Assembly (NCBI GenBank): GCA_041600715.1
Contig: JBFIJM010000003.1
Coordinates: forward strand, 3,345-67,344
DNA: 64,000 nt
Source: Candidatus Saccharimonadales bacterium
GTDB lineage: Bacteria; Patescibacteriota; Saccharimonadia; Saccharimonadales; 2-12-FULL-41-12
Reading direction: 5' to 3'
Shown here piece by piece: positions 13,201-59,420 of the stretch. The position numbers and the translations under genes are program-made. Every line of letters starts with the position of its first letter. Position 1 is the stretch's first letter. The notes beneath the pieces are model-generated. The model was given only the letters and a program-made list of their open reading frames with translations. It was not told the DNA's origin and ran no database searches.

Positions 13201-14767
13201 TAAGGGATTTGAGCAATTTATAGATGTATATAGAGATATTTTTCTTAACGACACTGGCGACATCGAATTATTCCCCGATTGGTACTCAGAAGTTCCCTGG
13301 AACGATATTTTTATACATCTGACCAGGCTTTTTCTACAAATCAACACTGTACATTTTTATGATAATGGGAGGGACGTTATTTTACGAGTACCTGTTGGAA
13401 TCACAAGTAGTCAGAATTACCTAATAGGGTATAAAAATATTATAGTTATTCAGAAAAAGAAAAAGTTCTACCCCATATACTTGCTAAATGTGGAAGTATT
13501 TTTCAAAGCGTCGATTATCGATGTAAAATTATTTTCTGACACCAATAGTATTATAAAAAACATCCAGATCATTGTGAAAAAAAATATGAATAGTCTATCG
13601 AAAGGATTAGTAGTTAAAAAAAACTTGGACCTTCACGGTGTCATGAGCTTCGCCAAATCTTCCAAGTATAAAATTACTAAGCTTTATGTTAATAAAGCAG
13701 ATATGTGTTGGGGTGTGACTGTCAATGGTTGTATATTTGTACCGGTATATCCGTCGCATTATACACCCCATGATAATATAGAATACTCTCCGTTGAATAG
13801 AAAAAAAGACGTCTGCTCATTTAAACAGCTCAATGATTTTTTATGGACGTACAATAAATGGGTAAATACTGAGAGCGAGCAAAAAAATATTATACCAGAA
13901 CTCCCCCCGGTATATCCTAATATTCAAATACAGAAATGGATTCAATTAGGCAACCATATAATTGGATTTATCGATACACATAGACATATGTGGTATTTTC
14001 AACCAATCAATCCGGGCAAAGCTATGAAAATAAAGAAGACCGGCATTTATAAAATGTTGTTTGACCCATACGAGGTCAACTTAAAAATATACAAACAAAT
14101 GACTAATATTTCCACTACTTCCACTACTTCGAAAGATTCCACTAAGAGCAATACAAACACTTGTCTTTACAATTACTATCTTTATAAATTATTCTTGCTG
14201 AAATTTATGGAGTATTTAAGTACAAAGAAAAATACAAGTGTCCGCAGAAAAATTAAGAAAGCCATCTTAATGAGATCGAAGGAAAAATCTGACGAGACTT
14301 TGCGGGCAATACTTGATGACCAAGACTATCAAAAAATAAAAACGCAATGGGTAGAAAATAAAAAAGTAATGTTCGCAAACATAAACTTGACCAATTATAA
14401 TTTTGATAAGACTCGGTTCGATGAAAAAACACAAGACCAAACAGATGCATTTTTAAAAACTGCTGTTCGTTCGTTTACAAAAATAATAACTCCTTCTGAG
14501 GTTAAAAATATCGAATTTACAAATATCTACACTGATAAGTCGGCCAACTTTTACGACAAGTCGGGGTCTTTAAAACTTACTAAACATCGGCTTGATGATT
14601 TTATTGAGATACTTTCAAGTGATTTGCGGAATCCAACGAAGAGTAAGTGGATTTTTGAAGACGTTCTTGCTGATCCAACAGTCAAACAATTTCAATTTAT
14701 CAGGCGACTCGATGAAAAAATATTTATATCTATTGGGGAGAAATTTAAAAGATATTCATCTGTATAA
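10277..14767 (+). CDS. large transcription-factor-like protein, probably an A7-type early transcription factor large subunit (ASFV G1340L class), with beta-grasp-like N-terminal segments
   Basis: 1496 aa. KCQKAYQP and YYTCPNPKYPYIKFMVKEHPKDYCIPCCKK resemble the vaccinia A7 blocks RICQNTKNKNRKP and FTCMDP..KYCIPCCF as I recall them. aattatata abuts the ATG. Confidence 0.45.
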   Translation: MDFSNTPIKLNVYNRHGDLVKIHVLLGHAPDDVRKAIMQYKKSKSGTKTLEKYYGKDWKAKLAFTTSVDGGGNNDDDDDDGDGDDDVDGDSGEAAITELEKVEEAESNFNFDFEERIPNLKDGVDIADISQIETEPHNVTPPSIVDPDEYNHVTRATERIRDSKLIGSSDSTYSDPEDESQESTLLREVDDILDGKKINLIQVGKTKTPTPTPTLIGKASMPSKFTTVEFVDMYVDPSDNVYTFKKKISLILNMPIYRQHIWVLRNSITHPLSYKIEVASSLIDVDIRQMMNFEGEQVENIPIIQKSYQMKDEIIIKGYDSFKIMDSYLHRGEVSFNVIDINEFMPSRDILNTFAKDKYKLELVYFGFVILFWPMITLSVFSEFIIGPIDKFYPDLHPDEETLKKGMQLSNDIFVNRSEILSNPVRLNMIQSKLESSITYSMIRVSSEIEQIDILSLRNLFDLLELSAIMPWCKCILSRDYYSNFIFEKTFRNTKGIGEVITTPSVVIKLVPDGKSVQYMQLNIYSNGNYTIKSFWREEQYYGFDDIHNAVAKMVNPLLTKINKLHVFFDTRRLRLMDKNNSKFSEINTSIFYRRAMTDKEFIKLEKQLRIFQEAGFIDGKDSDGNTLEYYFTKGMYQHDISRIDNNIQTKNYYEYLSDGNIKQKWDTIFRKTRLTKFMHRFSDVRIDISGVKEKEFPIFYGLIITLLYMYEKNAGPLKSKPDPGADDSEIKVAKKKLTHLKDQDPLLYDFKKIYKSNVIYSKKCQKAYQPSILSRDELGKLTAGQKNKMVKYWNFTTNEPAYYTCPNPKYPYIKFMVKEHPKDYCIPCCKKTPVSTDSTNPRTIIHNICLKDHVYAAEKKTITVGSKYIMSYGKDVEQGRLSKLPEHSIEPLFYETYSTEGKGGVDKECDISDGYYIYGVNQTTRSMNNVGYIYCISHGLDRPVSELLRLFLDKLVESPHIFKILIGGKTTYYFKGFEQFIDVYRDIFLNDTGDIELFPDWYSEVPWNDIFIHLTRLFLQINTVHFYDNGRDVILRVPVGITSSQNYLIGYKNIIVIQKKKKFYPIYLLNVEVFFKASIIDVKLFSDTNSIIKNIQIIVKKNMNSLSKGLVVKKNLDLHGVMSFAKSSKYKITKLYVNKADMCWGVTVNGCIFVPVYPSHYTPHDNIEYSPLNRKKDVCSFKQLNDFLWTYNKWVNTESEQKNIIPELPPVYPNIQIQKWIQLGNHIIGFIDTHRHMWYFQPINPGKAMKIKKTGIYKMLFDPYEVNLKIYKQMTNISTTSTTSKDSTKSNTNTCLYNYYLYKLFLLKFMEYLSTKKNTSVRRKIKKAILMRSKEKSDETLRAILDDQDYQKIKTQWVENKKVMFANINLTNYNFDKTRFDEKTQDQTDAFLKTAVRSFTKIITPSEVKNIEFTNIYTDKSANFYDKSGSLKLTKHRLDDFIEILSSDLRNPTKSKWIFEDVLADPTVKQFQFIRRLDEKIFISIGEKFKRYSSV

Positions 14768-17254: not shown

Positions 17255-17983
17255 ATGCAAGATTCCGAATCTGGAGATTTGGGCAAGCGACCGGATAAAA
17301 AAATTAAATACGAGTGTTGTATATGTTTTACTAACGAAATTGACTCACTGTCTCCATGTGACCATGTATTTTGTCAAGAGTGTATATTTAAATGGGTCAA
17401 AAAGCACGTTTCTTGTCCAATATGTCGTTTTATATTTCACGAGGAAGAGATAATAAATGTACAAATCAATGAATCGCTTCAACAAGACAATGAAGATGAC
17501 GAATCAGCGCGAATCTCCTATTTACCCCCCGGCAAAATTCAAATAACCCCAGACAAACCTGTTGATAAGCCTAAATGTAATCTGCCACCGCAAATGCCTT
17601 TGCCACCGCAAATACCTTTGCCACCGCAAATACCTTTGCCACCGCAAATGTCTTTGCCACCACAAATACCTTTGCCACCACAAATGCAGCTGCCACTTCT
17701 CCCTCGTCAGCTAACCATCCCACCACAGATGCCACCACCACTTCTCCCTCGTCAGCTAACCATCCCACCACAAATGCCACCACCACTTCTCCCTCGTCAG
17801 CTAACCATCCCACCGATATGGGCAAATATCCAGCCACCGTGGGTTGATAGCGAAAATATTTATCGATCGCCCTTCCCTCCGCATCTACCCTATCCCTATC
17901 CATATCCGCCGCAACATTCCGGGTATAGACCTGTACCATCAAACCGAGGTGGTCGCCGTTCGATAATATTTTCCCCGTATTAA
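17255..17983 (+). CDS. C3HC4 RING-finger protein with a long Pro/Gln-rich repeat tail
   Basis: CCICFTNEIDSLSPCDHVFCQECIFKWVKKHVSCPICR. The track start (17246) is a TTG; the first ATG is at 17255. Confidence 0.8.
   Translation: MQDSESGDLGKRPDKKIKYECCICFTNEIDSLSPCDHVFCQECIFKWVKKHVSCPICRFIFHEEEIINVQINESLQQDNEDDESARISYLPPGKIQITPDKPVDKPKCNLPPQMPLPPQIPLPPQIPLPPQMSLPPQIPLPPQMQLPLLPRQLTIPPQMPPPLLPRQLTIPPQMPPPLLPRQLTIPPIWANIQPPWVDSENIYRSPFPPHLPYPYPYPPQHSGYRPVPSNRGGRRSIIFSPY
17585..17815. repeat. in-frame 18-nt (x6) and 45-nt (x2.7) tandem repeats coding PPQ(M/I)PL and PPLLPRQLTIPPQM
   Basis: Direct reading. It generates the antisense shadow ORF 17571-18035. Confidence 0.9.
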
Positions 17984-24738: not shown

Positions 24739-25161
24739 ATGACATTGTATCAGGGTGAAGAAAAATATTCTATTGAAAAAATTGTAAATCATTCTGTGCC
24801 CTTTTTTAAATTTCTTCAAGATTCATCGCCAAAAGATCTTCGTAGAGAAATATCATGTTGTGGCATTGCTAACTCTACAGGTGATGCGTTTGACTTCTTT
24901 GTGTCCGTCAACGACGTTGATAAGCAAGAATTGCTCGATAATATGGGATTTTCTAGTCAAGTCATTCAAGTAATACATGTTTTTGAAGTATTCCGAGAGT
25001 CGTTTTTTCGCGAATGCGAAGATGTACTTGGAACAATGTCGATGCAGCGTAGAGATTTATTTGCTGAGTCGCCAAGTAAATATGTAGATTTATACATGGG
25101 ATTAACCAGACAAGAAAAAATAAAAGTTCTTACATGGGCGAGAGCTAAGTCAAGGACTTAA
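24739..25161 (+). CDS. hypothetical protein
   Basis: 140-aa ORF with taatatactca before the ATG. Its last codons are the seed of the downstream repeat array. Confidence 0.5.
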   Translation: MTLYQGEEKYSIEKIVNHSVPFFKFLQDSSPKDLRREISCCGIANSTGDAFDFFVSVNDVDKQELLDNMGFSSQVIQVIHVFEVFRESFFRECEDVLGTMSMQRRDLFAESPSKYVDLYMGLTRQEKIKVLTWARAKSRT

Positions 25162-25250
25162 GAATGCTAAGTCAAGAACTCAAGAATGCTAAGTCAAGAA
25201 CTTAAGAATGCTAAGTCAAGGACTTAAGAATGCTAAGTCAAGGACTTAAT
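25144..25250. repeat. 22-nt tandem array (gctaagtcaaggacttaagaat, 4.8 copies)
   Basis: Unit 1 is the last five codons plus stop (AKSRT*) of ORF 24739-25161. The array fills the gap to the convergent gene at 25252. Confidence 0.95.
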
Positions 25251-25251
25251 G

Positions 25252-26574
25252 CTAAAGCAAAAATTTAATGATGCTCGAAGCAGCGGCCCTACCTAATTTA
25301 GTCCTGACACGATCAATATTTGCTAACTTAGTCAATGTATCGTCATCACCAGGCATAGTCAGTAATTCTATCATACTATATTTAGTAAGTATAATTTCAG
25401 CGGTGTCTCTACTTATAAGAGGAATGCAGCTTATAATTCGCGCATATGTTCTTTGAGATGTACGTAGGTGTGGTTTTTGTATCTGTAATATTTTTTTAGC
25501 CCTCTCGCCGATGATTGCTCCGGTTGGGTAGCGTAAAGTTGATATATCTTCATATTGTAGCTCCCCCAATATCATCTGCTTTATTGTGTATTTTTTATCT
25601 ATGAACAAACTAGATGTCCTATCCGTTACATTGGTAATTGCATTCCACATTTTATAAGTAATCTCCAGGTCGGTTTTAATTATTCTTTCACGTAGTCTAT
25701 CCTCATTGGATCCACCTTCGACTGTGCTGACTTTTTGGTCACACTTCGATGTGCTGACTTTTTGGTCACACTTCGATGTGCTGACTAGCACCGACTGTAT
25801 CGGCTTGCCCTTATATTCATCACCTCCTTTAGCTCCACATTCATCATAGATGACATCCCCATCACCACCCTGATCCTCATCAAGAGCTTTATTAATCAAT
25901 ATAAATGGACTAGGGGCCAATGTTCCATAGTTCTTAGCTATCTCCATCACTCGCATAGCCGTATATTTCTTATCTTTAGAGTAAAAAACACTCATTTTGT
26001 CACGCAATACTACATGATCTAGATGAGATCTTAAGTCTTTATATCGTTTACCACCCACATATCTTAACGGGTCGGGACACGGATTACCCTCAATTAAATA
26101 TGCACAATCGCTACCAATTTCCTTACTAAACTCGACAAGACGTTTATTATTTCCTCTTCGACTATCCGTAAAGGTTTGCGATAGGTCTTTCCATGTTTTT
26201 CGCTCGATGATAAGAAGTATTCTTCCTCTATATGCGATAGCGTAATCTCCATCGCGTAGGGTTGCAATTTCATACGGTATGTTTTTGTCCTTAATTTCTT
26301 TATAGGCAAAGAATGGGATTACTTCAAACTCTCTGTAGTCGATGAGAATATATAATCCATCCTTAGATATTGGCAAACTTTTGGACTCTTCCGACGAAAC
26401 CAAGTCTTCGTCGCTACCATCATCGTTATCACTATCACTCACAAATGATGGTTTAGATTTTTGTTTATTATACTTGGGCTTGGGCTTGGGCTTGGGCTTG
26501 GGCTTGGGCTTGGGCTTGGGCTTGGGCTGAGCTCGAATGCCCTTAGACGCGAGTAGTCTTTTATTTTCAGACAT
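25252..26574 (-). CDS. ERCC4 (XPF/Mus81)-type structure-specific nuclease (ASFV EP364R class)
   Basis: YILIDYREFE ... LRDGDYAI ... LLIIERKTWKDLSQTFTDSRRGNNKRL is the GDx(n)ERKx3D signature. A C-terminal HhH-like segment reads IPLISRDTAEIILTKY. The N-terminus carries (PK)n. Confidence 0.8.
   Translation of the reverse strand: MSENKRLLASKGIRAQPKPKPKPKPKPKPKPKPKYNKQKSKPSFVSDSDNDDGSDEDLVSSEESKSLPISKDGLYILIDYREFEVIPFFAYKEIKDKNIPYEIATLRDGDYAIAYRGRILLIIERKTWKDLSQTFTDSRRGNNKRLVEFSKEIGSDCAYLIEGNPCPDPLRYVGGKRYKDLRSHLDHVVLRDKMSVFYSKDKKYTAMRVMEIAKNYGTLAPSPFILINKALDEDQGGDGDVIYDECGAKGGDEYKGKPIQSVLVSTSKCDQKVSTSKCDQKVSTVEGGSNEDRLRERIIKTDLEITYKMWNAITNVTDRTSSLFIDKKYTIKQMILGELQYEDISTLRYPTGAIIGERAKKILQIQKPHLRTSQRTYARIISCIPLISRDTAEIILTKYSMIELLTMPGDDDTLTKLANIDRVRTKLGRAAASSIIKFLL
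26473..26526. repeat. (cttggg)9 coding (PK)n in the nuclease N-terminus
   Basis: Direct reading. Confidence 0.95.
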
Positions 26575-26615: not shown

Positions 26616-27155
26616 ATGCTTAGTAAACCCAAGAAATACATATTATATCTAGAATACGAAACTGATGCGAAGGTGTTTAGTAAAATAAAAAACGCATTAA
26701 TAAAGTATACTCCTGCGACGTCTATGATTTGTACAAACAAATACACAAAGATAATAACCGAGGACTCAACTACACCAGTCAACCCAATTAAAGTGATCCA
26801 AATGTTCACCAATATAAACGTGTACCCGACTGGCATCGGATATAGTCGGACGATATACAACTATATAGTTGTTAATGGAAATTTGATGGGATTCGACAAG
26901 TGGATTGAACGGACGACTAGCCAGCCAAATAAGCCGCCCGTAATTGTCGGTAGTTTGGGGTTTACTCTTATCAAAGATCAAATCTTAATAGGTGACGATT
27001 TTACTATAGGGTACACTGATATTTGTGACGAGTGGACAGTAGGATATGATTGCGATAATGAATTGGGGAGAAAAAAAGAGATAGCCCAAACATGCCCGAT
27101 AAAATGTTTAGAGATTTATTTACATAGGAAACGTGCGGCGAAAAAAATTGAATAA
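26616..27155 (+). CDS. hypothetical protein
   Basis: 179-aa ORF, longer than the antisense ORF 26609-26860. Confidence 0.5.
   Translation: MLSKPKKYILYLEYETDAKVFSKIKNALIKYTPATSMICTNKYTKIITEDSTTPVNPIKVIQMFTNINVYPTGIGYSRTIYNYIVVNGNLMGFDKWIERTTSQPNKPPVIVGSLGFTLIKDQILIGDDFTIGYTDICDEWTVGYDCDNELGRKKEIAQTCPIKCLEIYLHRKRAAKKIE
27141..27153 (+). promoter_or_regulatory. AAAAAAATTGAAT motif embedded in the last codons of the upstream gene
   Basis: aaaaaaattgaat is followed by taa; it lies 27 nt upstream of the ATG at 27181. Confidence 0.5.
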
Positions 27156-27180
27156 TAACAACAAATAAAGTTCTTGTTGG

Positions 27181-27699
27181 ATGAATACGGTAGCTGCAAA
27201 ATTTAAAGAGCAATTTAACCAGGTGCAAATAGCATATCTGGTTCAAAAATGCCGATGTGACTCAAGCACATGTACTAAATTAGGTCATTGGAGATATGAA
27301 CGTGAGGATGGCAAAATGGCTCCGATACCGTCTGGAAGATGTCTCACTTGTGGGTTACGACGCAGAAAGGTACTTGATGGAGATAATATAGATTGTTGTA
27401 TTACTTTCTACAAAAGTTTCCGCGACTGCGATGGATTCGAAGAAGGGTCAGAAAAAAATTACATATATTTTAACAATCAATTCCCTCCTCGGTGCTCATT
27501 AGACTGGTTTAAAACTCCGACATTTATTAGTATTGATGACGAAGTGCCGATAGTCGGATCGAGCTTTAGACCCGATCGTTCCATCGGATCGAGCTTTAGA
27601 CCCGATCGTTCCATCGGATCGAGCTTTAGACCCGATCGTTCCATCGGATCGAGCTTTAGACCCGATCGTTCATGTCATCCGGGTTACGTTCGTCAGTAG
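27181..27699 (+). CDS. Cys-rich hypothetical protein with a (GSSFRPDRSI)x4 tail
   Basis: 172-aa ORF. Its tail is encoded by the 30-nt array that overlaps the convergent gene. Confidence 0.5.
   Translation: MNTVAAKFKEQFNQVQIAYLVQKCRCDSSTCTKLGHWRYEREDGKMAPIPSGRCLTCGLRRRKVLDGDNIDCCITFYKSFRDCDGFEEGSEKNYIYFNNQFPPRCSLDWFKTPTFISIDDEVPIVGSSFRPDRSIGSSFRPDRSIGSSFRPDRSIGSSFRPDRSCHPGYVRQ
27555..27673. repeat. 30-nt tandem array (cggatcgagctttagacccgatcgttccat, 4 copies)
   Basis: The last copy contains the stop codon and final codons (..DRV*) of the minus gene 27656-29263. Confidence 0.95.
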
Positions 27700-29263
27700 T
27701 CATATGATTCCGCATGTATTTTGACCCAATCTTACCAGCATGTCGATTAGCTGTTGTATCCCTACCAAACTCTCCATCTAATCTAGTCGATTTAACGTTC
27801 ATATTTTCGCGGTCAAGTCGACCACCTCGCCGTTGATTACGTTGCTTCGAACTATTTCCATATGACTCGAATGCATGCCGGGGCATATTTGATTTATTAC
27901 TAGGTCGAGCGGCGTGACTAAAGTTAAAAGTCTTTTTTTCCTCGCCCTTAATATGAACAGTGTTCGACTTACGTTTATCATTAATAACGTCGCCAAATTT
28001 TGTATTACTTGTCCCAGGTGCTTGCTCTAAAAATAACTCATGCTTGCTCGAAGAATCGATTATATTTTCCCTTAAATCTTTTCGCTCCCTCTTCGTCATC
28101 TTCTTATTAACACCAACGAGAGTTTTAAAGATCTTTTGATTGATGATTGTTTTCCCCATTTTCTGGTCCAGCGTAGGCGCCCGTTGTTGAAGATTACCCT
28201 GCTCGCCGCCCAGTTCAGCATGTGCTGATTTACTTTGGGTTATGTCAGATTTTCGAGAGTTTTCGCCGACCATCATTTCTTGAATCATTTGTTTTTTTTG
28301 GTTCATCCTCTCCATTGACTTCGCGAAGTCAATGGTGTTTCTTTCCTTGGCTAATGTTCTTCGACGTTCGGCGGTTGTATCTATGATGGCAATGGCTGTG
28401 GCGAATTGGACCGGCTTATCCTCAATACTAATAAAAATATCGTGATCAAAATAAGCACCGCGCCTATTTTGATACCAATCTTTGTCAGCATCGACGTTGT
28501 GGGACTTCATAATGCCATACTTGGCAACCTTAAATCTCTGATCAGATGTCGACCTCCATCCAATCGGGATATCGTTCGACCCTGCTGTGGTATGACCAAT
28601 ACGAGTCCGGAGGGTCGGCCCTTCTTGGGCGAATTCAGTGTCTCCAACCGTGTCGAGCACCGATGATTTCTTGATCAAAGGTATTTGAACCGACGAACCA
28701 TTGTGCCAACCTACACGGGCGGTCTCAAAAATCTTCATTCTATCCTTAACCCAGTGCCGAGATTGGGCTAGCTGCCGTACGACATCTGCAGGATGCCACC
28801 CCTTTTCAGGAATAGAATGATCATGATCTGGATAAAATTTAATATATTTAGCCCTGGCATATTGTTGATCGACATGTTTCCGCATGTCAGGTTGATACAT
28901 TATACTTCGTGGCTCGACGTCTTTACCTGGCCCGACGAATTGATGATCTAGGAAGGTACCATCTGGTAGCCATGGCTCTGCTTCTGAGCGGCGACCACCA
29001 TGTCTTAATTCTAATACACCGTAACTTTGATATCCTCGAGTACGTGCAGGGGTACTTTTACCATTTTCATCGACTTCATATTCCATTCCACCACGAATTT
29101 GATCTGATTCTAACGTAGGTGCAACCGGTCGAAAATCACTTAATTCTTGTCGCATATGGTTTTCTATCTGATCAGGGTCTTCGAATAGACATGTTTTCTC
29201 ATGCTTACGGTATAACATATCTTCAGGCATAAGCCCATATTGTCCAACTATTGAATCTCCCAT
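27656..29263 (-). CDS. hypothetical basic protein (535 aa), GC-richer than its surroundings
   Basis: Long uninterrupted ORF with no motif I can name. Confidence 0.6.
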   Translation of the reverse strand: MGDSIVGQYGLMPEDMLYRKHEKTCLFEDPDQIENHMRQELSDFRPVAPTLESDQIRGGMEYEVDENGKSTPARTRGYQSYGVLELRHGGRRSEAEPWLPDGTFLDHQFVGPGKDVEPRSIMYQPDMRKHVDQQYARAKYIKFYPDHDHSIPEKGWHPADVVRQLAQSRHWVKDRMKIFETARVGWHNGSSVQIPLIKKSSVLDTVGDTEFAQEGPTLRTRIGHTTAGSNDIPIGWRSTSDQRFKVAKYGIMKSHNVDADKDWYQNRRGAYFDHDIFISIEDKPVQFATAIAIIDTTAERRRTLAKERNTIDFAKSMERMNQKKQMIQEMMVGENSRKSDITQSKSAHAELGGEQGNLQQRAPTLDQKMGKTIINQKIFKTLVGVNKKMTKRERKDLRENIIDSSSKHELFLEQAPGTSNTKFGDVINDKRKSNTVHIKGEEKKTFNFSHAARPSNKSNMPRHAFESYGNSSKQRNQRRGGRLDRENMNVKSTRLDGEFGRDTTANRHAGKIGSKYMRNHMTTDERNPDDMNDRV

Positions 29264-29440: not shown

Positions 29441-30208
29441 TTAGCAAAGACCAAATCCGTCGCCGCCGTCGCCGTCGTCGTCGTAGTCGTCGCCGTCGTC
29501 GTCGTCGTAGTCGTCGCCGTCGTCGTCGTCGTCGTCGTGGATGTAGATGCACCACTGGAAAAGTTCATCCTCAGTAAATAGCGCGTTTTCGTCGTTTGGA
29601 ACAGGAAAACTACCAAAATTGCAATATTGCCTTTCAGAGTCCAGTTCCCATTCAAAATGACCACTTTCAGAGGAAGTATCCATCAACTTGACAACTTCAT
29701 ATAATGCTTTACCAATTGACTTGTTATCTTCCATCGTAGTCTTACATGGTCCATTATTCCGATGAAAAAGTCTGATACAGAAAGGTACGAACAATCTATC
29801 GTATGTTTTTTGGAGATCTTCCCGATGCATGTTAACTATGACCAACGCTTCTGCATGCGTCATGTTGCAAGGATACATGTTGTCTTTGGGATCATTCGAT
29901 TTCCAACAGGCTAAAGTATGCCTTCCACTACGGCATCGTGGATCAACACAATATGAATGGTCATCTTGAATCCATATGGGGAAGACGGTAGAGGAGGTGG
30001 TAGAGGAGGTGGTAGAGGTGGTAGAGGTGGTGGTGGTGGTAGAGGTGGTGGTGGTGGTGGTGGTGGTAGAGTTGATGGTAGAGTAGTAGGTGGTGGCGGT
30101 GGTAACGGTGGTGGTGGTGGTGGTGGTGGCGGGGTCTTGAACCCCGGAAGCGGGCGCCGCGAGGGCGGGGGCTTGGGCCGTAGCCAGCGAAACGATAGTG
30201 GTAGCCAT
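29441..30208 (-). CDS. mucin-like Thr-rich protein with a Cys-containing domain and poly-Asp tail; member of the leader family
   Basis: MATTIVSLATAQAPALAAPA.. is followed by about 45 aa of Thr/Ser and ends DDDDDDGDDYDDDDGDDYDDDGDGG. The ORFs 29271-29664, 29957-30508 and 29961-30239 are shadows. Confidence 0.6.
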   Translation of the reverse strand: MATTIVSLATAQAPALAAPASGVQDPATTTTTTTVTTATTYYSTINSTTTTTTTTSTTTTTSTTSTTSSTTSSTVFPIWIQDDHSYCVDPRCRSGRHTLACWKSNDPKDNMYPCNMTHAEALVIVNMHREDLQKTYDRLFVPFCIRLFHRNNGPCKTTMEDNKSIGKALYEVVKLMDTSSESGHFEWELDSERQYCNFGSFPVPNDENALFTEDELFQWCIYIHDDDDDDGDDYDDDDGDDYDDDGDGGDGFGLC

Positions 30209-30227
30209 CGTCAGGCATTACTAACGC

Positions 30228-30248
30228 AAAAAAAATCATTTTTTTTTT
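30228..30248 (-). promoter_or_regulatory. A10-TGA-T8 (sense) combined terminator and promoter module
   Basis: The plus strand reads aaaaaaaatcatttttttttt, between the stop of 30267-30896 and the ATG at 30208 (core 27 nt upstream). Confidence 0.55.
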
Positions 30249-30266
30249 GCAATAGTAATAAGTCGT

Positions 30267-30896
30267 CTATACAACCGCATCGTTTGACAGCAACTGATAC
30301 CACGGATCAGCATTGCGTCTGCACTGAATCGCTCTGGCAGTCCCCTCGTGGCATATACATAAATCGACACCGGAACAACTACATCTACATGTTACGCTAT
30401 TACCATTGCATGTGCACGCCAGTATTTGCATCCTGCCGGGACATTTCCATTCGTTACATGCTTGACATATGGATAACGGGCATATGTCAAGCAGGGGCTG
30501 CGGATTGAATCCTGGGCGACGATCATCAAAATGACCCATAGCCATAGTCATTTGACACGGATATTGTGACCATCTGCTCAGTATGTAGATTGTCTTTCCC
30601 AACCCCAATCTCATATGTTTCCTATCTGCGTGTATCTGTTTATATCGGTCAGGTTTAGCATGTGAGTTGGAGAGAAACGTTCGTCGGTCCTGCATTGCTA
30701 CAGCTAAAGCAATACAGAATTCCGTAAATGTTTGACTCGTTTTGTCGACAGGTTTGACATAATCGGAGTCATAACCGGAGGCATGGTCTCCCCAAGAGGG
30801 TATAGCTGGCTTTCCCAAAAGGAATTCACTTTTGTCGCTATAGTCCGCGGAGGCGCTGGCTTGGGCCGTAGCCAGCGAAACGATAGTGGTAGCCAT
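30267..30896 (-). CDS. Cys-rich protein; paralogous leader family member
   Basis: It starts MATTIVSLATAQASASA (13 aa identical to the neighbour). The C-terminus has 17 Cys (CPLSICQACNEWKCPGRMQILACTCNGNSVTCRCSCSGVDLCICH). Confidence 0.6.
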   Translation of the reverse strand: MATTIVSLATAQASASADYSDKSEFLLGKPAIPSWGDHASGYDSDYVKPVDKTSQTFTEFCIALAVAMQDRRTFLSNSHAKPDRYKQIHADRKHMRLGLGKTIYILSRWSQYPCQMTMAMGHFDDRRPGFNPQPLLDICPLSICQACNEWKCPGRMQILACTCNGNSVTCRCSCSGVDLCICHEGTARAIQCRRNADPWYQLLSNDAVV

Positions 30897-30915
30897 CGTC
30901 AGGCATTACTATTGC

Positions 30916-30933
30916 AAAAAAAATCAATTTTTT
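30916..30933 (-). promoter_or_regulatory. A-rich-TTGA-T8 (sense) module
   Basis: The plus strand reads aaaaaaaatcaatttttt, 27 nt upstream of the ATG at 30896. It sits in the 46-nt divergent gap shared with the gene at 30943. Confidence 0.55.
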
Positions 30934-30942
30934 ATTTATATA

Positions 30943-31515
30943 ATGCGACGTAGACGGAGACTATTATTATTGGCACTTCCCCTGCCATTCATAGCATTAA
31001 TTCCGTTTAATGGCGTCGAATATGTTCGAGATTTCCGAGTTCATACTCCTTTAATAATGCTTGCAATTTATTCGGTGTTGCTTAATTTTCCTTCTATCGT
31101 AAAGTCTTACTACGGTAAACCAGTTTATTATGAAGACTTAGAAGACGATCGATATGTTAATGTTGCATATCGCAAAAAGTTTCAGGCAGTTTTTATAACG
31201 ATAGGTCAACTTTGTTTATCATTTATGTTCGCAAGTCTTATTTACTACTATATACACAAATATCACATAAATAGATTTAACGTACTCGAATTATGTGGAA
31301 TCATAGGTGGTTTTATGAGCTTCATATCGAGGATCTTTAGCGGGATTAAATTTGTGCTTAAAACGTGCTATTATATAAAAAAAAATACGTCAACTACTCT
31401 TAATAGTTCCAAGAAATACAAAATATTGTTCAAGATGAGTGACATTGATATTGGATCTACACATGACCAAAATCAAGACATTATAGATCTGGAAGGGGTC
31501 GAGGCAGTTAAATAG
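30943..31515 (+). CDS. multi-pass membrane protein
   Basis: The first ATG is at 30943 (MRRRRRLLLLALPLPF..) with atttatata before it; there are at least 3 hydrophobic helices. Confidence 0.55.
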   Translation: MRRRRRLLLLALPLPFIALIPFNGVEYVRDFRVHTPLIMLAIYSVLLNFPSIVKSYYGKPVYYEDLEDDRYVNVAYRKKFQAVFITIGQLCLSFMFASLIYYYIHKYHINRFNVLELCGIIGGFMSFISRIFSGIKFVLKTCYYIKKNTSTTLNSSKKYKILFKMSDIDIGSTHDQNQDIIDLEGVEAVK

Positions 31516-33353: not shown

Positions 33354-34640
33354 ATGAACGTCATTAAATATCTCAATGACCTTAAATTTGTGGAAAATGA
33401 GGCTCATATTAGTTCTATAATAGCTAGTTTTTACGAGTACGGTATAAAAGTTAGCTATGATATGGAAACTAAACCTTCAAGATTTATATTTTCTGCTATG
33501 AAGAAATTCAGAACAGGTGGGATAATTGATACATATATATCCGAATGCAATGGACTAATCTTGTCACCACCTCTTGGTAAAAAAAATAAGTCTTGGAGTA
33601 TAATATCTTATCCACCGTGCACATATAGAAGCGTTGTATCTGTAGATGTTATGAATAAATATCTAGCTCAAGGCATGTATAGTGTTTATGAAATAATGGA
33701 GGGTACAATAATTACTTACTACTATTTTAATTCAGCGTGGCGAATGTCAACAACCAATGGAATTGATGTAAGTGATGTTAAATGGGATGGAAAATCATAC
33801 AAGGACGCATTTACCGAATGTCTAGTCCATATCGGTATAACTCGGGAAATCCTAGAAGCGTCTCTTGATAAATCTACATGTTATACATTTGGATTTAAGC
33901 ACCCCCATCGACACCCCTTTTATGAAGGTGGTCAACCCATATATAATGTTTGGTTTGTCCAGGGGCGTAATATAAAAACACTAAAACTAGAAGGTTTTAA
34001 GTTAATACCCGAGCAAAAAAAAGTTTTGGATTGCCCAACGAATATACGAGATTTATTCAAGAAATTAGCGTCGTCTATAGACGACTTTGATAAAGATAAA
34101 ACTGTTCTTTACGGGTACATTCTTAGGTCAAACAAATTAGGGGTGACTTATAAGTCGGTTATGTTAGAGAGCAGATTACTCACAACGATTCGGAAGTTAT
34201 ATTATCAGAGTTGTTTTAATAAGTTATCAAGACAAATGGAGATCGAGAGGGTTCGATTTATATGTTTATATTCTTATTTACAAATACAGATTAGACCAGT
34301 TTTCATCAAGTATTTTCCGCAGTTCACTGAGAAATTCGCAGAGTTCGATCGGATAACAAGTGACCTCGTTGATGCTGTCGTAAAAATCATCTCCACTTCA
34401 GAGACAGAGGCGAAAAGTATTCAGCCGACCGTAGAAGATCAAGGTCAAGGGCGATCTGACAAATTCGACAGTAGTCTGCGCAGCGAAGAAGAACCTAAAA
34501 AGGTATATGCCAGACAAATATTATCTTCTATGGGTAAAATTATGTCTTTAAAAGAGGATAAGATTACACGTAAAAAAATAAGAGAATATATATGCGATCC
34601 TATATATTTGGCAATTTATGACGCTTTATCTACAGAATAG
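33354..34640 (+). CDS. hypothetical protein with a weak ligase/capping-enzyme nucleotidyltransferase-like pattern but no obvious catalytic Lys. ASFV M448R class is possible but untested.
   Basis: ISECNGLIL sits where KxDG would be; MEGTIITYYYFNSAW resembles motifs III and IIIa. This is pattern only. Confidence 0.3.
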   Translation: MNVIKYLNDLKFVENEAHISSIIASFYEYGIKVSYDMETKPSRFIFSAMKKFRTGGIIDTYISECNGLILSPPLGKKNKSWSIISYPPCTYRSVVSVDVMNKYLAQGMYSVYEIMEGTIITYYYFNSAWRMSTTNGIDVSDVKWDGKSYKDAFTECLVHIGITREILEASLDKSTCYTFGFKHPHRHPFYEGGQPIYNVWFVQGRNIKTLKLEGFKLIPEQKKVLDCPTNIRDLFKKLASSIDDFDKDKTVLYGYILRSNKLGVTYKSVMLESRLLTTIRKLYYQSCFNKLSRQMEIERVRFICLYSYLQIQIRPVFIKYFPQFTEKFAEFDRITSDLVDAVVKIISTSETEAKSIQPTVEDQGQGRSDKFDSSLRSEEEPKKVYARQILSSMGKIMSLKEDKITRKKIREYICDPIYLAIYDALSTE

Positions 34641-39028: not shown

Positions 39029-42000
39029 ATGCCAAGATCTAAAGGCAATGTTTCTAAATCCCTTAAATCCATACCCAAGGATGACGACGAAACTCGCGAA
39101 GATGTTCATCATATAGTATTTTCCGAGTCTGACACGGATGACGAAATTGATAAACCCGTAAGGAACGAAGTAAAGTCCAGAATTCAAGAGGCTACAAGTA
39201 CGATTTTGAGGATTTTTAGAACATTCTTGAATAAACCTGATTACATTAATCCACCAAAAGACCCATCAACAAACATAGTCGACCGATCAGTGGGAAAATG
39301 TTACAATATACCATCTAGAAAAATACATAAATTCTTCAAATGTCTCGACGAATGTAGACGGACGAATCTATCAATGATGATGTATGAAAAACAATTAGAG
39401 TATTCAGGTATTATGGATGATTTTGATATAGGTCAAGACTGTAGAGTTAGTCAAATTACACATATCCATTTCCACAGATACGCCGTGAGGAAAATCAAAA
39501 ATCTCATCAAGTATGTCGAATTTCCTCTTAACGTCAAATCATTGGAAATATACATTGGGTTTATCCAGAAACCCCGTCCAGTTTTTAAGGATGATAGAAG
39601 CGCGTATTACGATGGGTTCCATGCACTAATCCCAGGTATTCAGCTAACCCGCGCGGCTAAACGATTTATTAACCAAAAATTTATTGAAGACGGCGATGTT
39701 CGAAGTATATTTCATGATTTTACACTCGCTGACGGAATTACTAAAGACGATTTGTTCGATATTAATAGTGCTCATGTTGGTGTACATTTTGTCGGATGTA
39801 GCAGTAAACCAGGCAAACCTGCGTATAAATTAAAATGGGTGTATCGGTGTAAAGTCACTATCGATCCAGATGATGTTGTACCTGTTCAATGTAATGACGT
39901 GTTTTTAGAGTCGAATTCTGTAAACATATGTCATGAATTTTCCCTAAACTGGGAGCGAAGCGAAGAGAAGGGTGGTATTATTCGTAAAAAGCAGTATAAC
40001 TTAAAAGAGGAATACATGAAGTATATCTCTAACGATGGGAAGACAAGAGTTGACGATGTTGAAAACGAATTCTACGACGAGGGGTTGTCTCCTATAGATA
40101 ACGAACTGTCATTACTAAAATCTCGAGACCCTGAGGCTGGCTTTATTAAGAGTATGTTAGACATTCTCAATCCAGAAAGAGCTATTGAGTATAATGAATG
40201 GTGGGAGATTATGCGAATCTTAGCCAAGCTATCTCCATCGTATAAACCTTTGGCTAATTACTTCAGTCAAAAAAGTAAAAAACATGCCGAAGCTCCTTCA
40301 TATGAATCAATGTTTGACAAAAAATGGGAGGAAGCGCTTGCATGTAAAAGTAAAGTTACAATTGGCACACTACATTTCATAGCTGAGCGGGATAACCCAG
40401 ATGCTTACAAGGAAGTACGCAGCAGAAGTATATATAGCATATTGCATCGACAAATATACACACAACGATCCGAAGGTATCCTTGAGCATAATGTAATAGC
40501 CAAACTATTGTTTAATATGATTGGGCATAAATTTGTACATGATAAACCAGACGGGATGGCGCGGGGGAATTGGTATGAATTTATAATTGAAGGAGACCGT
40601 ATGAAAAAGGGGGAAATCTATAAATACAGACCATATGATGGTAGTAAACCTAAATCTATGCTGCGATACATCTCTGACCAGCTCCCACCGTTCTTTGAGA
40701 AGACTTTGATGAAAATTAAAGACTCTTATGAGGCAGCCGATGGGAACTTAGCGAAATACTATTCGCAAGTATACAAAAATTTTCAAAGATCATGCAGAAA
40801 CTTGGAGAATCGAACATATAAAAAAGCCGTCGTTGAAGAGTGTGAGAGTGAATTTGAGATGGTTGGATTCTCTGATTCCCTAGACACAGACCCATTAATT
40901 CGAGGTGTTGGTAATGGTATTTTATCTCTAAAAGATAAGCCCAAGCTCATCACTGGATTCCACAGCTACAAAGTTTCAAACTACACATCTACTGAGTTTA
41001 AACCATATAACCCATATGACCCGATTCAGAAAAAAGTATTAATAGCGCTTCGCAATTTATTCCCTGATGACGAGCCCGATTCGCATAATTTTACAATGTG
41101 TTACTTTGCAAGTACTTTGGATGGTCGCCCAAAAGATAGTGTATTTTTGATGATGGTGGGTGGTGGTAGTAATGGTAAATCCTTTCTTATTGAATTACAT
41201 AAAGGTGCCATTGGTATGCATTATGGTATGACTATGGACCCTTCATTCATCTTGGCGTCAAAGGGTAGAGACTCTGAAGCCGCAGCCCCATTACTTTTGG
41301 CGTTACAAAAAGTCAATTGGGTGGCTTTCTCAGAGACGGACCGACTTGCTGTATTGAATATTAGTAAGATTAAAAGGCTGACTGGTGGAGATACACTTTC
41401 TGGAAGGTATAACTATGGGAATAAAAACATTAATTTTAAACCTAAATGCCATTATACTTGCTGCTCTAATCATGATTTTGAGATTGATGGAACTGATCAT
41501 GGTACTTGGAGAAGAATGCTTTATGTAATTTTCAAGATGAAGTTCTGTCAACTGTGGAAGGGAGAGACTTATGATCCACAAAATATATATGAAAGGGTCG
41601 CTGACCCCGATATGGGAAAGGGTTGGACAGAAGATCCAGACATACTCGCTGGTTATTTTAGCATTATGTCACATTACTATCATAAACTTCGCACAAAATA
41701 CGGAGGGAGTGTAATAAATGTTCCGCACCCACATATTAAGGCAGATACTGAGAATTTTCGCAATCGTCAGGATAAAATTAACAACTTCTTATGTACTTAT
41801 TTAGTTAAATTACCTGAGGTAGAAACTGAAGAGACGATGGATAAAATGGCCAAAGCCAAAGCAGAGGTCAAGGCAGAGGCCAAAGCAGAGGCCAAAGCAG
41901 AGGCCAAAACAGAGGCCAAAGCAAAAGCAAAAGAAGAGCCAAAGAAAAAAATCTTTAGGATGCAATCAATGTCGGAGATTGCAGAAAAATACATCAAATG

Positions 42001-42721
42001 GCATGAAAGTCAATATCCAGGGGCTAACAAAAACTACTTGAAAGGATTGATTAGCCAATTGGAAAATTCACAAATCTCCAAGTATCTCAAGCGTACACGT
42101 CGAGGCAAATTTCTGATCGGCTACCGTATATTGAATATTAATGAGGCAAAGGAGGACGATGAAGAATATTTTTCGAAGACAGCATTTAGCGATAAAAAAT
42201 ACGAACATGGTGTTGTTTCAGAGAATGCTGAACAATATTACAAAAGACTCTGTAAGGAATATGATGAAAACTGCGCCAGAGAGAAAGCCGCTAAGTCTAA
42301 GGATAGTAAAAGTAAAAAAAATAGTACTTTTACCCCTGCGAGCTCAAATACCTTTGGACCAGATTTTAGAGTTGTACGTAGGAAGGATAATATTGACGCT
42401 GATGAGGATTCTGGTTCAGATATTGATCTTACGTTAGCGGCTAAAAAAAATCCGAGTCTTGCTGAACAAAGACAAAGAAGACGTCAGTTAAACCTTAGCA
42501 GTTTAAATAAATCAGTATTAAAAACCGATCCTAAATCAGGAAGGTCGATGCTTACATTCGACCCTATTGACGCAGCTAAAAAAGCAAACGTTCACGGTCG
42601 TAAGATTGTACAGTCAATGATGTTTAACGATGACGATGACGACGATGAGGATGAGGATGACGACGATGACGATGACGATGAGGATGAGCTTGTGATTGAT
42701 CTTGATACAATAATTGTATAA
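39029..42721 (+). CDS. D5-type primase-helicase (ASFV C962R class)
   Basis: AEP primase motifs MDDFDIGQD and DGFHALIPG. SF3 helicase Walker A VGGGSNGKS and Walker B VAFSETD. It carries an (AEAK)n insert at 41849-41932 and a poly-D/E tail. Confidence 0.85.
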   Translation: MPRSKGNVSKSLKSIPKDDDETREDVHHIVFSESDTDDEIDKPVRNEVKSRIQEATSTILRIFRTFLNKPDYINPPKDPSTNIVDRSVGKCYNIPSRKIHKFFKCLDECRRTNLSMMMYEKQLEYSGIMDDFDIGQDCRVSQITHIHFHRYAVRKIKNLIKYVEFPLNVKSLEIYIGFIQKPRPVFKDDRSAYYDGFHALIPGIQLTRAAKRFINQKFIEDGDVRSIFHDFTLADGITKDDLFDINSAHVGVHFVGCSSKPGKPAYKLKWVYRCKVTIDPDDVVPVQCNDVFLESNSVNICHEFSLNWERSEEKGGIIRKKQYNLKEEYMKYISNDGKTRVDDVENEFYDEGLSPIDNELSLLKSRDPEAGFIKSMLDILNPERAIEYNEWWEIMRILAKLSPSYKPLANYFSQKSKKHAEAPSYESMFDKKWEEALACKSKVTIGTLHFIAERDNPDAYKEVRSRSIYSILHRQIYTQRSEGILEHNVIAKLLFNMIGHKFVHDKPDGMARGNWYEFIIEGDRMKKGEIYKYRPYDGSKPKSMLRYISDQLPPFFEKTLMKIKDSYEAADGNLAKYYSQVYKNFQRSCRNLENRTYKKAVVEECESEFEMVGFSDSLDTDPLIRGVGNGILSLKDKPKLITGFHSYKVSNYTSTEFKPYNPYDPIQKKVLIALRNLFPDDEPDSHNFTMCYFASTLDGRPKDSVFLMMVGGGSNGKSFLIELHKGAIGMHYGMTMDPSFILASKGRDSEAAAPLLLALQKVNWVAFSETDRLAVLNISKIKRLTGGDTLSGRYNYGNKNINFKPKCHYTCCSNHDFEIDGTDHGTWRRMLYVIFKMKFCQLWKGETYDPQNIYERVADPDMGKGWTEDPDILAGYFSIMSHYYHKLRTKYGGSVINVPHPHIKADTENFRNRQDKINNFLCTYLVKLPEVETEETMDKMAKAKAEVKAEAKAEAKAEAKTEAKAKAKEEPKKKIFRMQSMSEIAEKYIKWHESQYPGANKNYLKGLISQLENSQISKYLKRTRRGKFLIGYRILNINEAKEDDEEYFSKTAFSDKKYEHGVVSENAEQYYKRLCKEYDENCAREKAAKSKDSKSKKNSTFTPASSNTFGPDFRVVRRKDNIDADEDSGSDIDLTLAAKKNPSLAEQRQRRRQLNLSSLNKSVLKTDPKSGRSMLTFDPIDAAKKANVHGRKIVQSMMFNDDDDDDEDEDDDDDDDDEDELVIDLDTIIV

Positions 42722-47462: not shown

Positions 47463-48239
47463 ATGCCAGACGTTAAAATTTATACTAAAACCGGCGATAC
47501 AGGTAAAACTACTCTATTCGGTAATGATAACAAATATTCTAAATCCGACAGTGTATTCGATTTAATGGGAGGCATTGACGAAGTTAATGCAGGACTAGGC
47601 CTACTTACATATCAAGTTCGGGCATTAAAACAATACTGGAATAAACATACAATATACTTGTTAGGCCTAATCATATTCTGCGGATTCGCTTCTTGCTGTA
47701 TATCACATATATATACTGGCAAAATCGACCCTTCATATTTAACACCTATTGTATTGATGTGGTTTGCAAGTATTTTTGTCTTTGAGTACAGTAGCTGTCA
47801 GTCAAAGAAATTTACAAAAATAGAAGATGTACTATTAATGATTCAAGAGAAAAATGTTAATCTTCTAAGTCATATTAGTAATCCTGACCGTGTTCGGTTC
47901 ATAGGTGGTGCTGAAATCGTCAAGATAATGGAAGAAGAAATTGACACGATAACTGCGATACTTCCAAAATTAACTAATTTTATCCTGGTGTATAAATCGA
48001 AAGAGTCTGCTTGGTGCAACGTTACACGTACAATTGTTCGTCGAGTAGAACGAGAACTTTCTAGATATTGTCTTGAGCACAAATCGTTGAACACTGAATG
48101 TCTGCCATATATGAACCGCATGTCTGATTATCTATTCACTGTTGCCAGATGTATTGATAATGATCAGTGGTCGCCGCCGACTAACTATTATCATGCTGTG
48201 TCTGGACGCAATGGAAAGAGTGTTAAAAAAAATAAGTAA
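47463..48239 (+). CDS. PduO-type ATP:cob(I)alamin adenosyltransferase (MMAB-like) with a hydrophobic insertion of about 50 aa
   Basis: KIYTKTGDTGKTTLFG, GGIDEVNAGLG, LPKLTNFIL, TRTIVRRVERE and YMNRMSDYLFTVAR match the family blocks. The insert is IYLLGLIIFCGFASCCISHIY...IVLMWFASIFVF. Confidence 0.75.
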   Translation: MPDVKIYTKTGDTGKTTLFGNDNKYSKSDSVFDLMGGIDEVNAGLGLLTYQVRALKQYWNKHTIYLLGLIIFCGFASCCISHIYTGKIDPSYLTPIVLMWFASIFVFEYSSCQSKKFTKIEDVLLMIQEKNVNLLSHISNPDRVRFIGGAEIVKIMEEEIDTITAILPKLTNFILVYKSKESAWCNVTRTIVRRVERELSRYCLEHKSLNTECLPYMNRMSDYLFTVARCIDNDQWSPPTNYYHAVSGRNGKSVKKNK

Positions 48240-49867: not shown

Positions 49868-51100
49868 ATGAGTACCATCGAGAATCTCCATCATAATATT
49901 ACATCAAGGTTCGTTGTGCTCCAATCCATTGTCGACCTCTTTGAAACACATGGTCTTGAAAATAAAAGGGTAAAAAAGAAATTGGAAAAATTAATCGACG
50001 TATATAACAAAGGTTCTATCGTTATTTTGTCAAAATATCATGTTGATCAAGACGTTAATAGTCTAGAAAACTATCAAATATTTGTAAACGAGGAAAACTT
50101 CCACAATAAGTTGGAGCAAATTTACAAACATCTCAATGATGAAAATCTACATGACAACCAAGATTTGAGAAAACTAAGGGCCCAATATGAATCATATGTT
50201 ACATATAAAAATAACGAATATAAGAATAAATATTCAACATGTACATGCGGAACAAAGATGGTTATCAAGTCAAATACAAGTGAATTATTATGTATTGCAT
50301 GTGGAGAAACAAAAAATCTAAAGGGTACTGTGTTTGAGGATGATCAATTTTACATGCAGGATGGACGTCCTAAAAATAATTCATACGACGTCACTGGACA
50401 TTGCGAAAAATGGTTGGAAAAAATACAAGCCCGAGAACCTGCACAAATTCCCGAGTCCGTTATTATTACTGTGAAAAAATGTATTCGGGGAGATAAAATC
50501 AAAGATCTAGGGAGTATCAAATGTGAAAATATCAGGGAGTACCTGCAAGAAAAAAAGCTAGCGAACTACTACAATCACGCACCGTTAATTCGTAAAAAAA
50601 TCACTGACATCTCGCCACCCCAATTAACCGACGAAGAATTTCAATTAACTATCTTATATTTTGCTATATTTATCAAAATCTTTGAACGGATCAAACCTAA
50701 AGGCATGACTAACTGCTCGTATCATCCGTATTTTATCTATAAAATTCTTGAGCAAATTATCGACCGATCCGATAAAATGATGTTAGAGGAATCCGATGAT
50801 GACTCTGATTATGAGTCAGACCTCGAAGGTAACCATGGTGATACAATCGGCAATAGTCTTGATGACCTCGAATGGGAACGGTCATTGACCGTCCCTGTCA
50901 TCAAAAAGCTTACTCCCAGGAAGAAACGCGTCCCATTTCCCCTCAAGTATTCGAAGAGAAAAAAAGAAATCTTAAGCTGTATACATCTGCAATCAAAATC
51001 GACTCTTATCGAGAAAGATCAAATTTTTCGGGAGGTATGTGATGATATTCCTAAGTTTACCTATGTGGCGACCAATAAAAATAAACATAACCAATTTTAA
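49868..51100 (+). CDS. VLTF3-like late transcription factor (vaccinia A2L / ASFV B385R class)
   Basis: Zn ribbon CTCGTKMVIKSNTSELLCIACGE followed by the conserved helical core (..NCSYHPYFIYKILEQI); tagatatac abuts the ATG. Confidence 0.7.
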   Translation: MSTIENLHHNITSRFVVLQSIVDLFETHGLENKRVKKKLEKLIDVYNKGSIVILSKYHVDQDVNSLENYQIFVNEENFHNKLEQIYKHLNDENLHDNQDLRKLRAQYESYVTYKNNEYKNKYSTCTCGTKMVIKSNTSELLCIACGETKNLKGTVFEDDQFYMQDGRPKNNSYDVTGHCEKWLEKIQAREPAQIPESVIITVKKCIRGDKIKDLGSIKCENIREYLQEKKLANYYNHAPLIRKKITDISPPQLTDEEFQLTILYFAIFIKIFERIKPKGMTNCSYHPYFIYKILEQIIDRSDKMMLEESDDDSDYESDLEGNHGDTIGNSLDDLEWERSLTVPVIKKLTPRKKRVPFPLKYSKRKKEILSCIHLQSKSTLIEKDQIFREVCDDIPKFTYVATNKNKHNQF

Positions 51101-51101
51101 C

Positions 51102-51178
51102 AATCCAGATATTCTTCTAATTAATCCAGATATTCTTCTAATTAATCCAGATATTCTTCTAATTAATCCAGATATTCC
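51102..51178. repeat. 21-nt tandem array (aatccagatattcttctaatt, 3.7 copies)
   Basis: The distal copy is the last codons plus stop (..NIWIN*) of the minus gene 51159-51488. Confidence 0.95.
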
Positions 51179-51488
51179 CGCATTTTTTAGTAATACACGC
51201 GTTGATTAATTTTTTACCCTTACCAAGCCTCGCTTGTTTAACAATCTTACCCCCACATGCGCATGTGATATATTTTTTAGGGTTGGCTGGGTCATCCGTT
51301 ATTTTTTTGATAATTTTATTAAATACCATAAGGTTTGTTCCTTTAATTTCCTCATACCTAAGTGTATCGTTGGCGGTTGTTTTGTATTCTTCGCCACATG
51401 AAGGACATGAAAAAACTAGGTTTTCACCTGCCGTGTCGACATTCAGAAGATTTTTACAGTTACGACAGAATTGATTCTTATCCGACAT
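51159..51488 (-). CDS. RPB9-like RNA polymerase subunit / TFIIS-family double zinc-ribbon protein (ASFV C105R class)
   Basis: N-ribbon FCRNCKNLL..FSCPSCGEEY and C-ribbon CACGG..CITKKCGNIW; 109 aa. It has no TFIIS acidic hairpin (DE). Confidence 0.6.
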   Translation of the reverse strand: MSDKNQFCRNCKNLLNVDTAGENLVFSCPSCGEEYKTTANDTLRYEEIKGTNLMVFNKIIKKITDDPANPKKYITCACGGKIVKQARLGKGKKLINACITKKCGNIWIN

Positions 51489-59290: not shown

Positions 59291-59420
59291 ACTATATATC
59301 AGCCGATTATACTATATATCAGCCGATTATACTATATATCAGCCGATTATACTATATATCAGCCGATTATACTATATATCAGCCGATTATACTATATATC
59401 AGCCAATTATACTACATCAG
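59291..59420. repeat. 20-nt tandem array (actatatatcagccgattat, 6.5 copies) abutting the ATG at 59290
   Basis: Direct reading. In gene sense each unit ends ..gatatatagt, and the proximal unit supplies the TATA-like box before the ATG. Confidence 0.95.

Follow-up and report, generated by a model that had tools for sequence, protein, structure and literature searches.

We describe here a perfect 30-nt tandem array lying where two convergent genes meet in a giant-virus genome. It is likely a young minisatellite (VNTR), carried by a Mimiviridae-like virus that is prone to tandem duplication, and it is most likely neutral, that is, a tolerated by-product of this genome-wide tendency. The array adds one more example to a class of features already known and does not represent a new kind of system.

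The window and its tandem repeats

The window, by which we mean the whole stretch of 64,000 nucleotides that was analysed, is part of a giant virus (NCLDV) genome. Its genes include the following:

651..2135: major capsid protein gene
39029..42721: D5-type primase-helicase gene
56971..58353: poly(A) polymerase gene (Pfam Poly_A_pol_cat, E=1e-42; PDB 4wse and 4p37, both at E of about 1e-15)

A VLTF3-like factor and TFIIB-like and RPB9-like proteins are also encoded. Homologues of the poly(A) polymerase with solved structures are Mimivirus R341 and Megavirus Mg561 (PDB 4wse and 4p37). The window has a G+C content of 33-45% and is about 88% coding. There are 16 sites with the Mimiviridae early-promoter octamer, AAAATTGA, and seven of these are located 26-94 nt 5′ of a gene start on the correct strand, compared to about 0.6 expected (the zone makes up 3.5% of the sequence space). 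This enrichment in front of genes indicates that the virus is Mimiviridae-like and uses that promoter. Sites are found, among other positions, at 27144, 30924, 43931, 44856, 46726, 52073 and 62848, often in the form AAAAAAATTGATTTTTTTT. Many other genes carry a TATATA-like sequence directly 5′ of the ATG, which may be a late promoter.

About 47 distinct tandem arrays are present in the window, covering 4.9% of its bases. Roughly 34 of them lie within ORFs, and there the period is divisible by 3 in every case; the periods that are not (7, 11, 20 and 22) are confined to intergenic arrays. This pattern is what would be expected if tandem duplication is frequent and selection acts on reading frames. 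The richness in repeats is lineage-specific, since it is shared by one distant relative (L008), whereas two others (L007 and L002) are not rich in them.

Four of the 47 arrays touch a stop codon, while random placement would give 2.2 (P=0.19). Stop-codon-seeded arrays, as the first-pass annotation calls the one at 27554..27671, are therefore not a specially enriched category. Two other arrays are located at gene termini. The one at 51102..51177 (21 nt × 3.6, perfect), copies the NIWIN-stop end of an RPB9-like zinc-ribbon gene (51159..51488, minus strand) and runs leftwards to the stop of the VLTF3-like gene (49868..51100, plus strand), thereby exactly filling the convergent gap. The array at 25144..25249 (22 nt × 4.8) starts 3 nt past the stop of an ERCC4-domain nuclease gene (25252..26574, minus strand), and a convergent 140-aa ORF (24739..25161, plus strand) ends 18 nt within it. 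Overlaps of convergent 3′ ends are likewise found elsewhere. Four other pairs share 4-20 nt (14756..14767, 17980..17983, 34630..34640 and 58334..58353), which makes such tail-to-tail overlap a usual feature of the genome; the 44 nt at 27656..27699 constitute the largest case among these.

Some further observations concern the same stretch of DNA. The array at 59289..59414 (20 nt × 6.3, unit ATACTATATATCAGCCGATT) reaches 2 nt into the start codon of the minus-strand gene 58334..59290, whose upstream region therefore consists of repeated TATATA-containing units. The upstream regions of two other minus-strand genes, 29441..30208 and 30267..30896, located at 30209..30260 and 30897..30950, respectively, end almost identically in ...AAAAAAT(T)GATTTTTTTTGC(G/A)(T/A)TAGTAATGCCTGACG, which suggests a duplicated promoter/5′ cassette. 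The first of these regions, which is also just 3′ of the 30267..30896 stop, contains a strong palindrome (z=-4.3). The segment 29441..30508 is extremely low-complexity coding sequence, with a 255-aa minus-strand ORF containing long poly-Thr/Ser and poly-Asp runs and, opposite to it, a Gly/Arg-rich 183-aa shadow ORF (29957..30508). Finally, the minus strand of 4600..4919 has a small ORF, not included in the ORF list, whose start at about 4919 is preceded by a TATATA motif and whose KKPAA repeats are encoded by a 15-nt array (4787..4853). This is likely a gene for a small basic protein that was not listed because it falls below the 150-aa ORF cutoff.

The array, the conserved gene and their history

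The features at the junction are:

27144..27151, plus strand: AAAATTGA, an early-promoter motif of Mimiviridae; the octamer begins 37 nt 5′ of the ATG at 27181
27181..27699, plus strand: orphan 172-aa ORF (ORF172)
27554..27671: tandem array with the 30-nt unit TCGGATCGAGCTTTAGACCCGATCGTTCCA (plus strand), located by Tandem Repeats Finder and blastn-short
27643..27666, minus strand: imperfect palindrome in the unit, folding in minus-sense RNA as AUCGGGUC / UAAAGCUC / GAUCCGAU
27656..27658, minus strand: TAA stop of the 535-aa gene, within the gene-proximal repeat copy
27656..27699: 44-nt overlap of the convergent ORFs 27181..27699 (plus) and 27656..29263 (minus)
27656..29263, minus strand: 535-aa giant-virus (NCLDV) gene ending in ...DDMNDRV-stop, with 87 homologues and a conserved C-terminal NDR

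Tandem Repeats Finder assigns to the array a period of 30 and 3.9 copies, with 100% matches and no indels. There are three full copies (27554-27583, 27584-27613 and 27614-27643) and one of 28 nt (27644-27671), all identical, and blastn-short detects no second site for the unit elsewhere in the window. Four perfect 30-mers of a unit that is unique in the window cannot be ascribed to chance. In minus-strand orientation, the copy closest to the 535-aa gene is GAAC GAT CGG GTC TAA AGC TCG ATC CGA TG, in which AAC GAT CGG GTC TAA is the NDRV-stop end of ORF 27656..29263. The same NDRV-stop recurs in the frame of the 535-aa gene in each further copy, with TAA at 27626-27628, 27596-27598 and 27566-27568. 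The unit is open in four of the six frames; on the plus strand these are two of the three, including the frame of ORF172. Residues 1-125 of ORF172 are unique and Cys-rich, residues 126-164 are the array-encoded GSSFRPDRSI repeats, and the last 8 residues are antisense to the end of the 535-aa gene. The C-terminus thus reads ...PIV(GSSFRPDRSI)x3 GSSFRPDRS CHPGYVRQ, with the stop at 27697..27699. A search of 27000..28000 for known RNA families gave no match.

These results confirm two claims of the first-pass annotation, namely that the unit carries the neighbour's last codons together with the TAA, and that the convergent genes overlap by 44 nt. The array itself, placed there at 27555-27673, is real, but its limits are 27554..27671. 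The fourfold GSSFRPDRSI was correctly read as being in frame, except that the fourth peptide copy lacks the final Ile. The further claim, that one gene's tail is built from duplicates of the other's terminus, is literally correct provided that ORF172 is translated.

The 535-aa protein has 87 full-length homologues of 505-555 aa in giant-virus metagenomic contigs, and their alignment shows C-termini that have in common ...(M/I/L)NDR followed by zero to few residues. This conservation implies that the terminus of the 535-aa gene is ancestral and that the other three copies are derived from it. Judged from the alignment, the gene is genuine and its terminus is older than the array. The protein has no Pfam match at E<0.1, and a family-profile search returned no matching PDB chain. 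Membership of the ASFV p49 minor capsid protein family is not supported. Three of the homologues score 23.8-25.6 bits against the p49 (B438L) family PF25668, which is below the gathering threshold of 27, and these matches are confined to their N-terminal 40-100 residues.

In the closest relative (L002, 50% identity) the locus is a plain spacer of about 200 nt with no array, and the convergent gene is a different one, encoding a methyltransferase-like protein of 177 aa. In more distant relatives the 535-aa homologue is followed by other genes, a 986-aa gene in one and an ankyrin gene in another. In a comparison of synteny, both the 177-aa gene in L002 and a 184-aa gene in L008 proved unrelated to ORF172.

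As to the origin of the array, replication slippage or unequal recombination would have expanded a 30-nt segment to about four copies, this segment being made up of the final four codons and TAA of the 535-aa gene plus some 13 nt of the flank 3′ to it. Two chance properties of the sequence would then have allowed the expansion to persist. In the frame of the 535-aa gene every copy contains a stop. Translation would hence end at the first copy, such that the protein is unaffected by any number of copies and only the 3′ UTR becomes longer. In the frame of ORF172, the unit corresponds to 10 codons and is open, so ORF172 would remain intact, keeping its frame and its stop while gaining 10 residues (GSSFRPDRSI) near the C-terminus per copy. 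The single-copy version of ORF172 is 142 aa long and already has the 44-nt overlap.

The duplication cannot have been a single simple event. The junction between units is ...CCGA/TG/GAAC..., while the present flanks are ...CAT/GAAC on the gene side and ...CCGA/CT on the far side. One simple duplication of these flanks does not yield that junction, and the history must therefore contain at least one extra step. We have also considered a one-step duplication via the flanking ATCGG microhomology, but this predicts a period of 25 nt instead of the actual 30 nt. The 100% identity of the copies argues that the array is very young, and this identity is the sole basis for both its youth and its putative polymorphism. 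Exact scans of viral, metagenome and genome collections for the array/gene junction returned no sister strain or second allele, and ORF172 is absent from the contig index.

Alternative readings of the junction

It is important to consider whether ORF172 is a gene at all. On the indirect grounds of promoter motif, codon bias and ORF length this is likely, and ORF172 is probably a real gene that is transcribed early, in which case the repeat would probably be translated as a low-complexity tail. The octamer is at a typical distance, -37 from the ATG. The part preceding the array has a codon LLR of 0.122 per codon, which is the highest of its six frames and is attained by just 3% of 125-codon windows taken off-frame from real genes; real in-frame windows have a mean of 0.203, and 12% of them are at or below 0.122. 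When the 500-nt gap was shuffled 2000 times, an ORF of at least 125 codons arose just three times (0.15%), and the gap contains no other sizeable ORF, in a genome that is 88% coding. Orphan genes are, moreover, common in giant viruses. All of this speaks against a scenario in which ORF172 is untranslated, or in which its mRNA stops short of the array or within it, the repeats then being non-coding 3′ flank of the 535-aa gene with a coincidental open frame on the plus strand. We regard that scenario as distinctly improbable, although a number of observations are in its favour. ORF172 has no homologue, since a word-indexed search of 5.8 billion clustered proteins returned only its own sequence, and an exhaustive HMMER search of residues 1-125 against 1.84 billion representative proteins gave nothing beyond a chance match. 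That match (P0089), a repeat-containing animal lipase-like protein with 28% identity over 47 residues, counted five times, was rejected as a homologue. Pfam, PHROGs and tblastn within the window gave no match either. The array and the tail have a codon LLR of -0.024 per codon in the ORF172 frame, i.e. no coding signature. The single-sequence AlphaFold2 model is uninformative (mean pLDDT 40, and 25-34 in the tail). The unit is open in two of its three plus-strand frames, and a period divisible by 3 is likewise seen in 7 of the 11 intergenic arrays, which makes the intact frame weak evidence of coding.

The same data bear on the proposal of the first-pass annotation that the array was co-opted as coding sequence, which we could not substantiate. 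The codon LLR drops from 0.122 before the array to -0.024 within it, two of the three plus-strand frames would be open anyway, the copies are of very recent origin, and L002, the closest relative, lacks an array. ORF172 also has no homologues against which selection could be measured. Co-option is literally true of the sequence, which as such contains no indication of a function of the tail or of selection on it.

Another concern is that the copy number rests on a short-read metagenome assembly and may be wrong. That the array, or its number of copies, is simply an artefact of such assembly is nevertheless extremely unlikely. In favour of an artefact, the source is a metagenome-type contig of 69.5 kb, an NCBI record that contains the exact 535-aa and 172-aa proteins, the perfect array of 118 nt is near the resolving limit of short-read k-mers, and the longest arrays in the window are all at most 140 nt. 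In addition, a Logan k-mer assembly breaks exactly within the array. Against an artefact, the independent Logan contig (L001, from SRR29257383) carries an identical 535-aa gene and ends 14 nt past the TAA, at ...CTCGATCCGATG. Its last letters are those of the unit-to-unit junction, ...CCGATG, which is absent from any single-copy version, where the flank is ...CCGACT. The reads must therefore contain at least two copies. Dozens of arrays of varied period on the same contig, furthermore, fit the frames of conserved genes, unlike what assembler artefacts would do.

We now consider the folding of the array in RNA, and with it the option that the array is a multiplied 3′-end processing signal, providing stronger or redundant termination and polyadenylation for the mRNA of the 535-aa gene and perhaps for the convergent one. 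The polyadenylation signals of Mimiviridae follow a "hairpin rule", reportedly described by Byrne et al. in 2009, with cleavage and polyadenylation at palindromes just past the stop codon. In this family, mRNA 3′ ends are formed at palindromic hairpins, where RNase III cleaves and an R341-type polymerase extends (Priet et al. 2015, PMC4402537). The palindrome at 27643..27666 consists of 8 bp including one G·U pair, has the stop codon in its loop, and is present in every copy. The folding energy of the array as minus-sense RNA is -67.5 kcal/mol compared to -48.2 for shuffles (z=-5.2), with none of 200 shuffles being as good, a result that is compatible with a selected structural role. The G·U pair favours this fold in the sense of the 535-aa mRNA over the plus sense, for which z is only -1.8. 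A single copy with its flanks, on the other hand, gives z=-0.9, with 20% of shuffles being as stable, and the unit alone is not significant as a terminator hairpin. The value for the whole array is then largely what the repetition of any weakly self-complementary unit would produce.

The genomic context of this option is divided in a similar way. The window encodes the R341/Mg561-type poly(A) polymerase, i.e. the hairpin-pathway enzyme (PMC4402537), but no RNase III (R343-like) domain was identified among the subset of window ORFs that was scanned, the window being a part of the genome. Several other genes have clear palindromes over or just past the stop codon (e.g. 3201..3776, 3814..4578, 30267..30896 and 47463..48239), and the 22-nt array beside the ERCC4 stop also contains a hairpin, TAAGTC-aag-GACTTA. 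In a test over 47 genes, however, 3′ flanks did not significantly exceed mid-gene controls in structure (one-sided P=0.086). The G+C-containing stem of 8 bp also looks smaller than the palindromes described for Mimivirus, and a plus-strand transcript cut inside the array would cost ORF172 its stop codon. On balance, a multiplied 3′-end signal appears unlikely. That the array is a selected dual-purpose element, serving as a shared 3′-end site for both convergent mRNAs and at the same time as a translated repeat tail for a lineage-specific early gene, is more doubtful still and can be given very little weight. If true, it would amount to new coding sequence caught in the act of arising from antisense duplicates of a neighbour's terminator. 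The reading as a young, most likely neutral minisatellite is thus the one that we retain.

Known systems and significance

Large DNA viruses are known to carry VNTRs, and in African swine fever virus both intergenic and coding repeat loci are used in strain typing. The present array resembles them in having near-identical units in the 10-50-nt range, arranged head-to-tail, between or inside genes. Its units have the same orientation, a head-to-tail arrangement and high identity, which is what defines a tandem repeat or minisatellite. Common to both are also the tolerance of coding periods divisible by 3 and a presumed origin in replication slippage or unequal recombination. What differs is that the unit here straddles the stop of one gene while lying inside an overlapping convergent ORF, so that a single event would lengthen a 3′ UTR and a protein tail together.

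The junction also has features in common with the hairpin-rule signals of Mimiviridae. There is a palindrome at or just past the stop, it is located at a tail-to-tail junction where it could serve both strands, and the virus has a poly(A) polymerase of the R341/Mg561 type as well as the early promoter AAAATTGA. Unlike those signals, the single-copy stem has only 8 bp with a G·U pair, is not more stable than shuffles, and is tandemly repeated. As in overprinting, antisense overlapping genes and de novo C-terminal extension, a part of ORF172 is antisense to another coding sequence and the newer ORF is restricted to its lineage. The true overlap is, however, only 44 nt, and most of the borrowed sequence consists of duplicates outside the older gene, where no dual-coding constraint acts on the copies. 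No specific equivalent case was found in the literature searched.

In practical terms, arrays of this kind break short-read assemblies, could be useful as strain-typing markers, and call for caution in the annotation of C-terminal repeat tails. If ORF172 is expressed, the junction would be a clean and datable case of a tandem duplication at a tail-to-tail junction lengthening a protein, the added residues stemming from the antisense of the neighbour's terminus at no cost to that conserved neighbour. It would then represent one small route by which the orphan genes of giant viruses grow.
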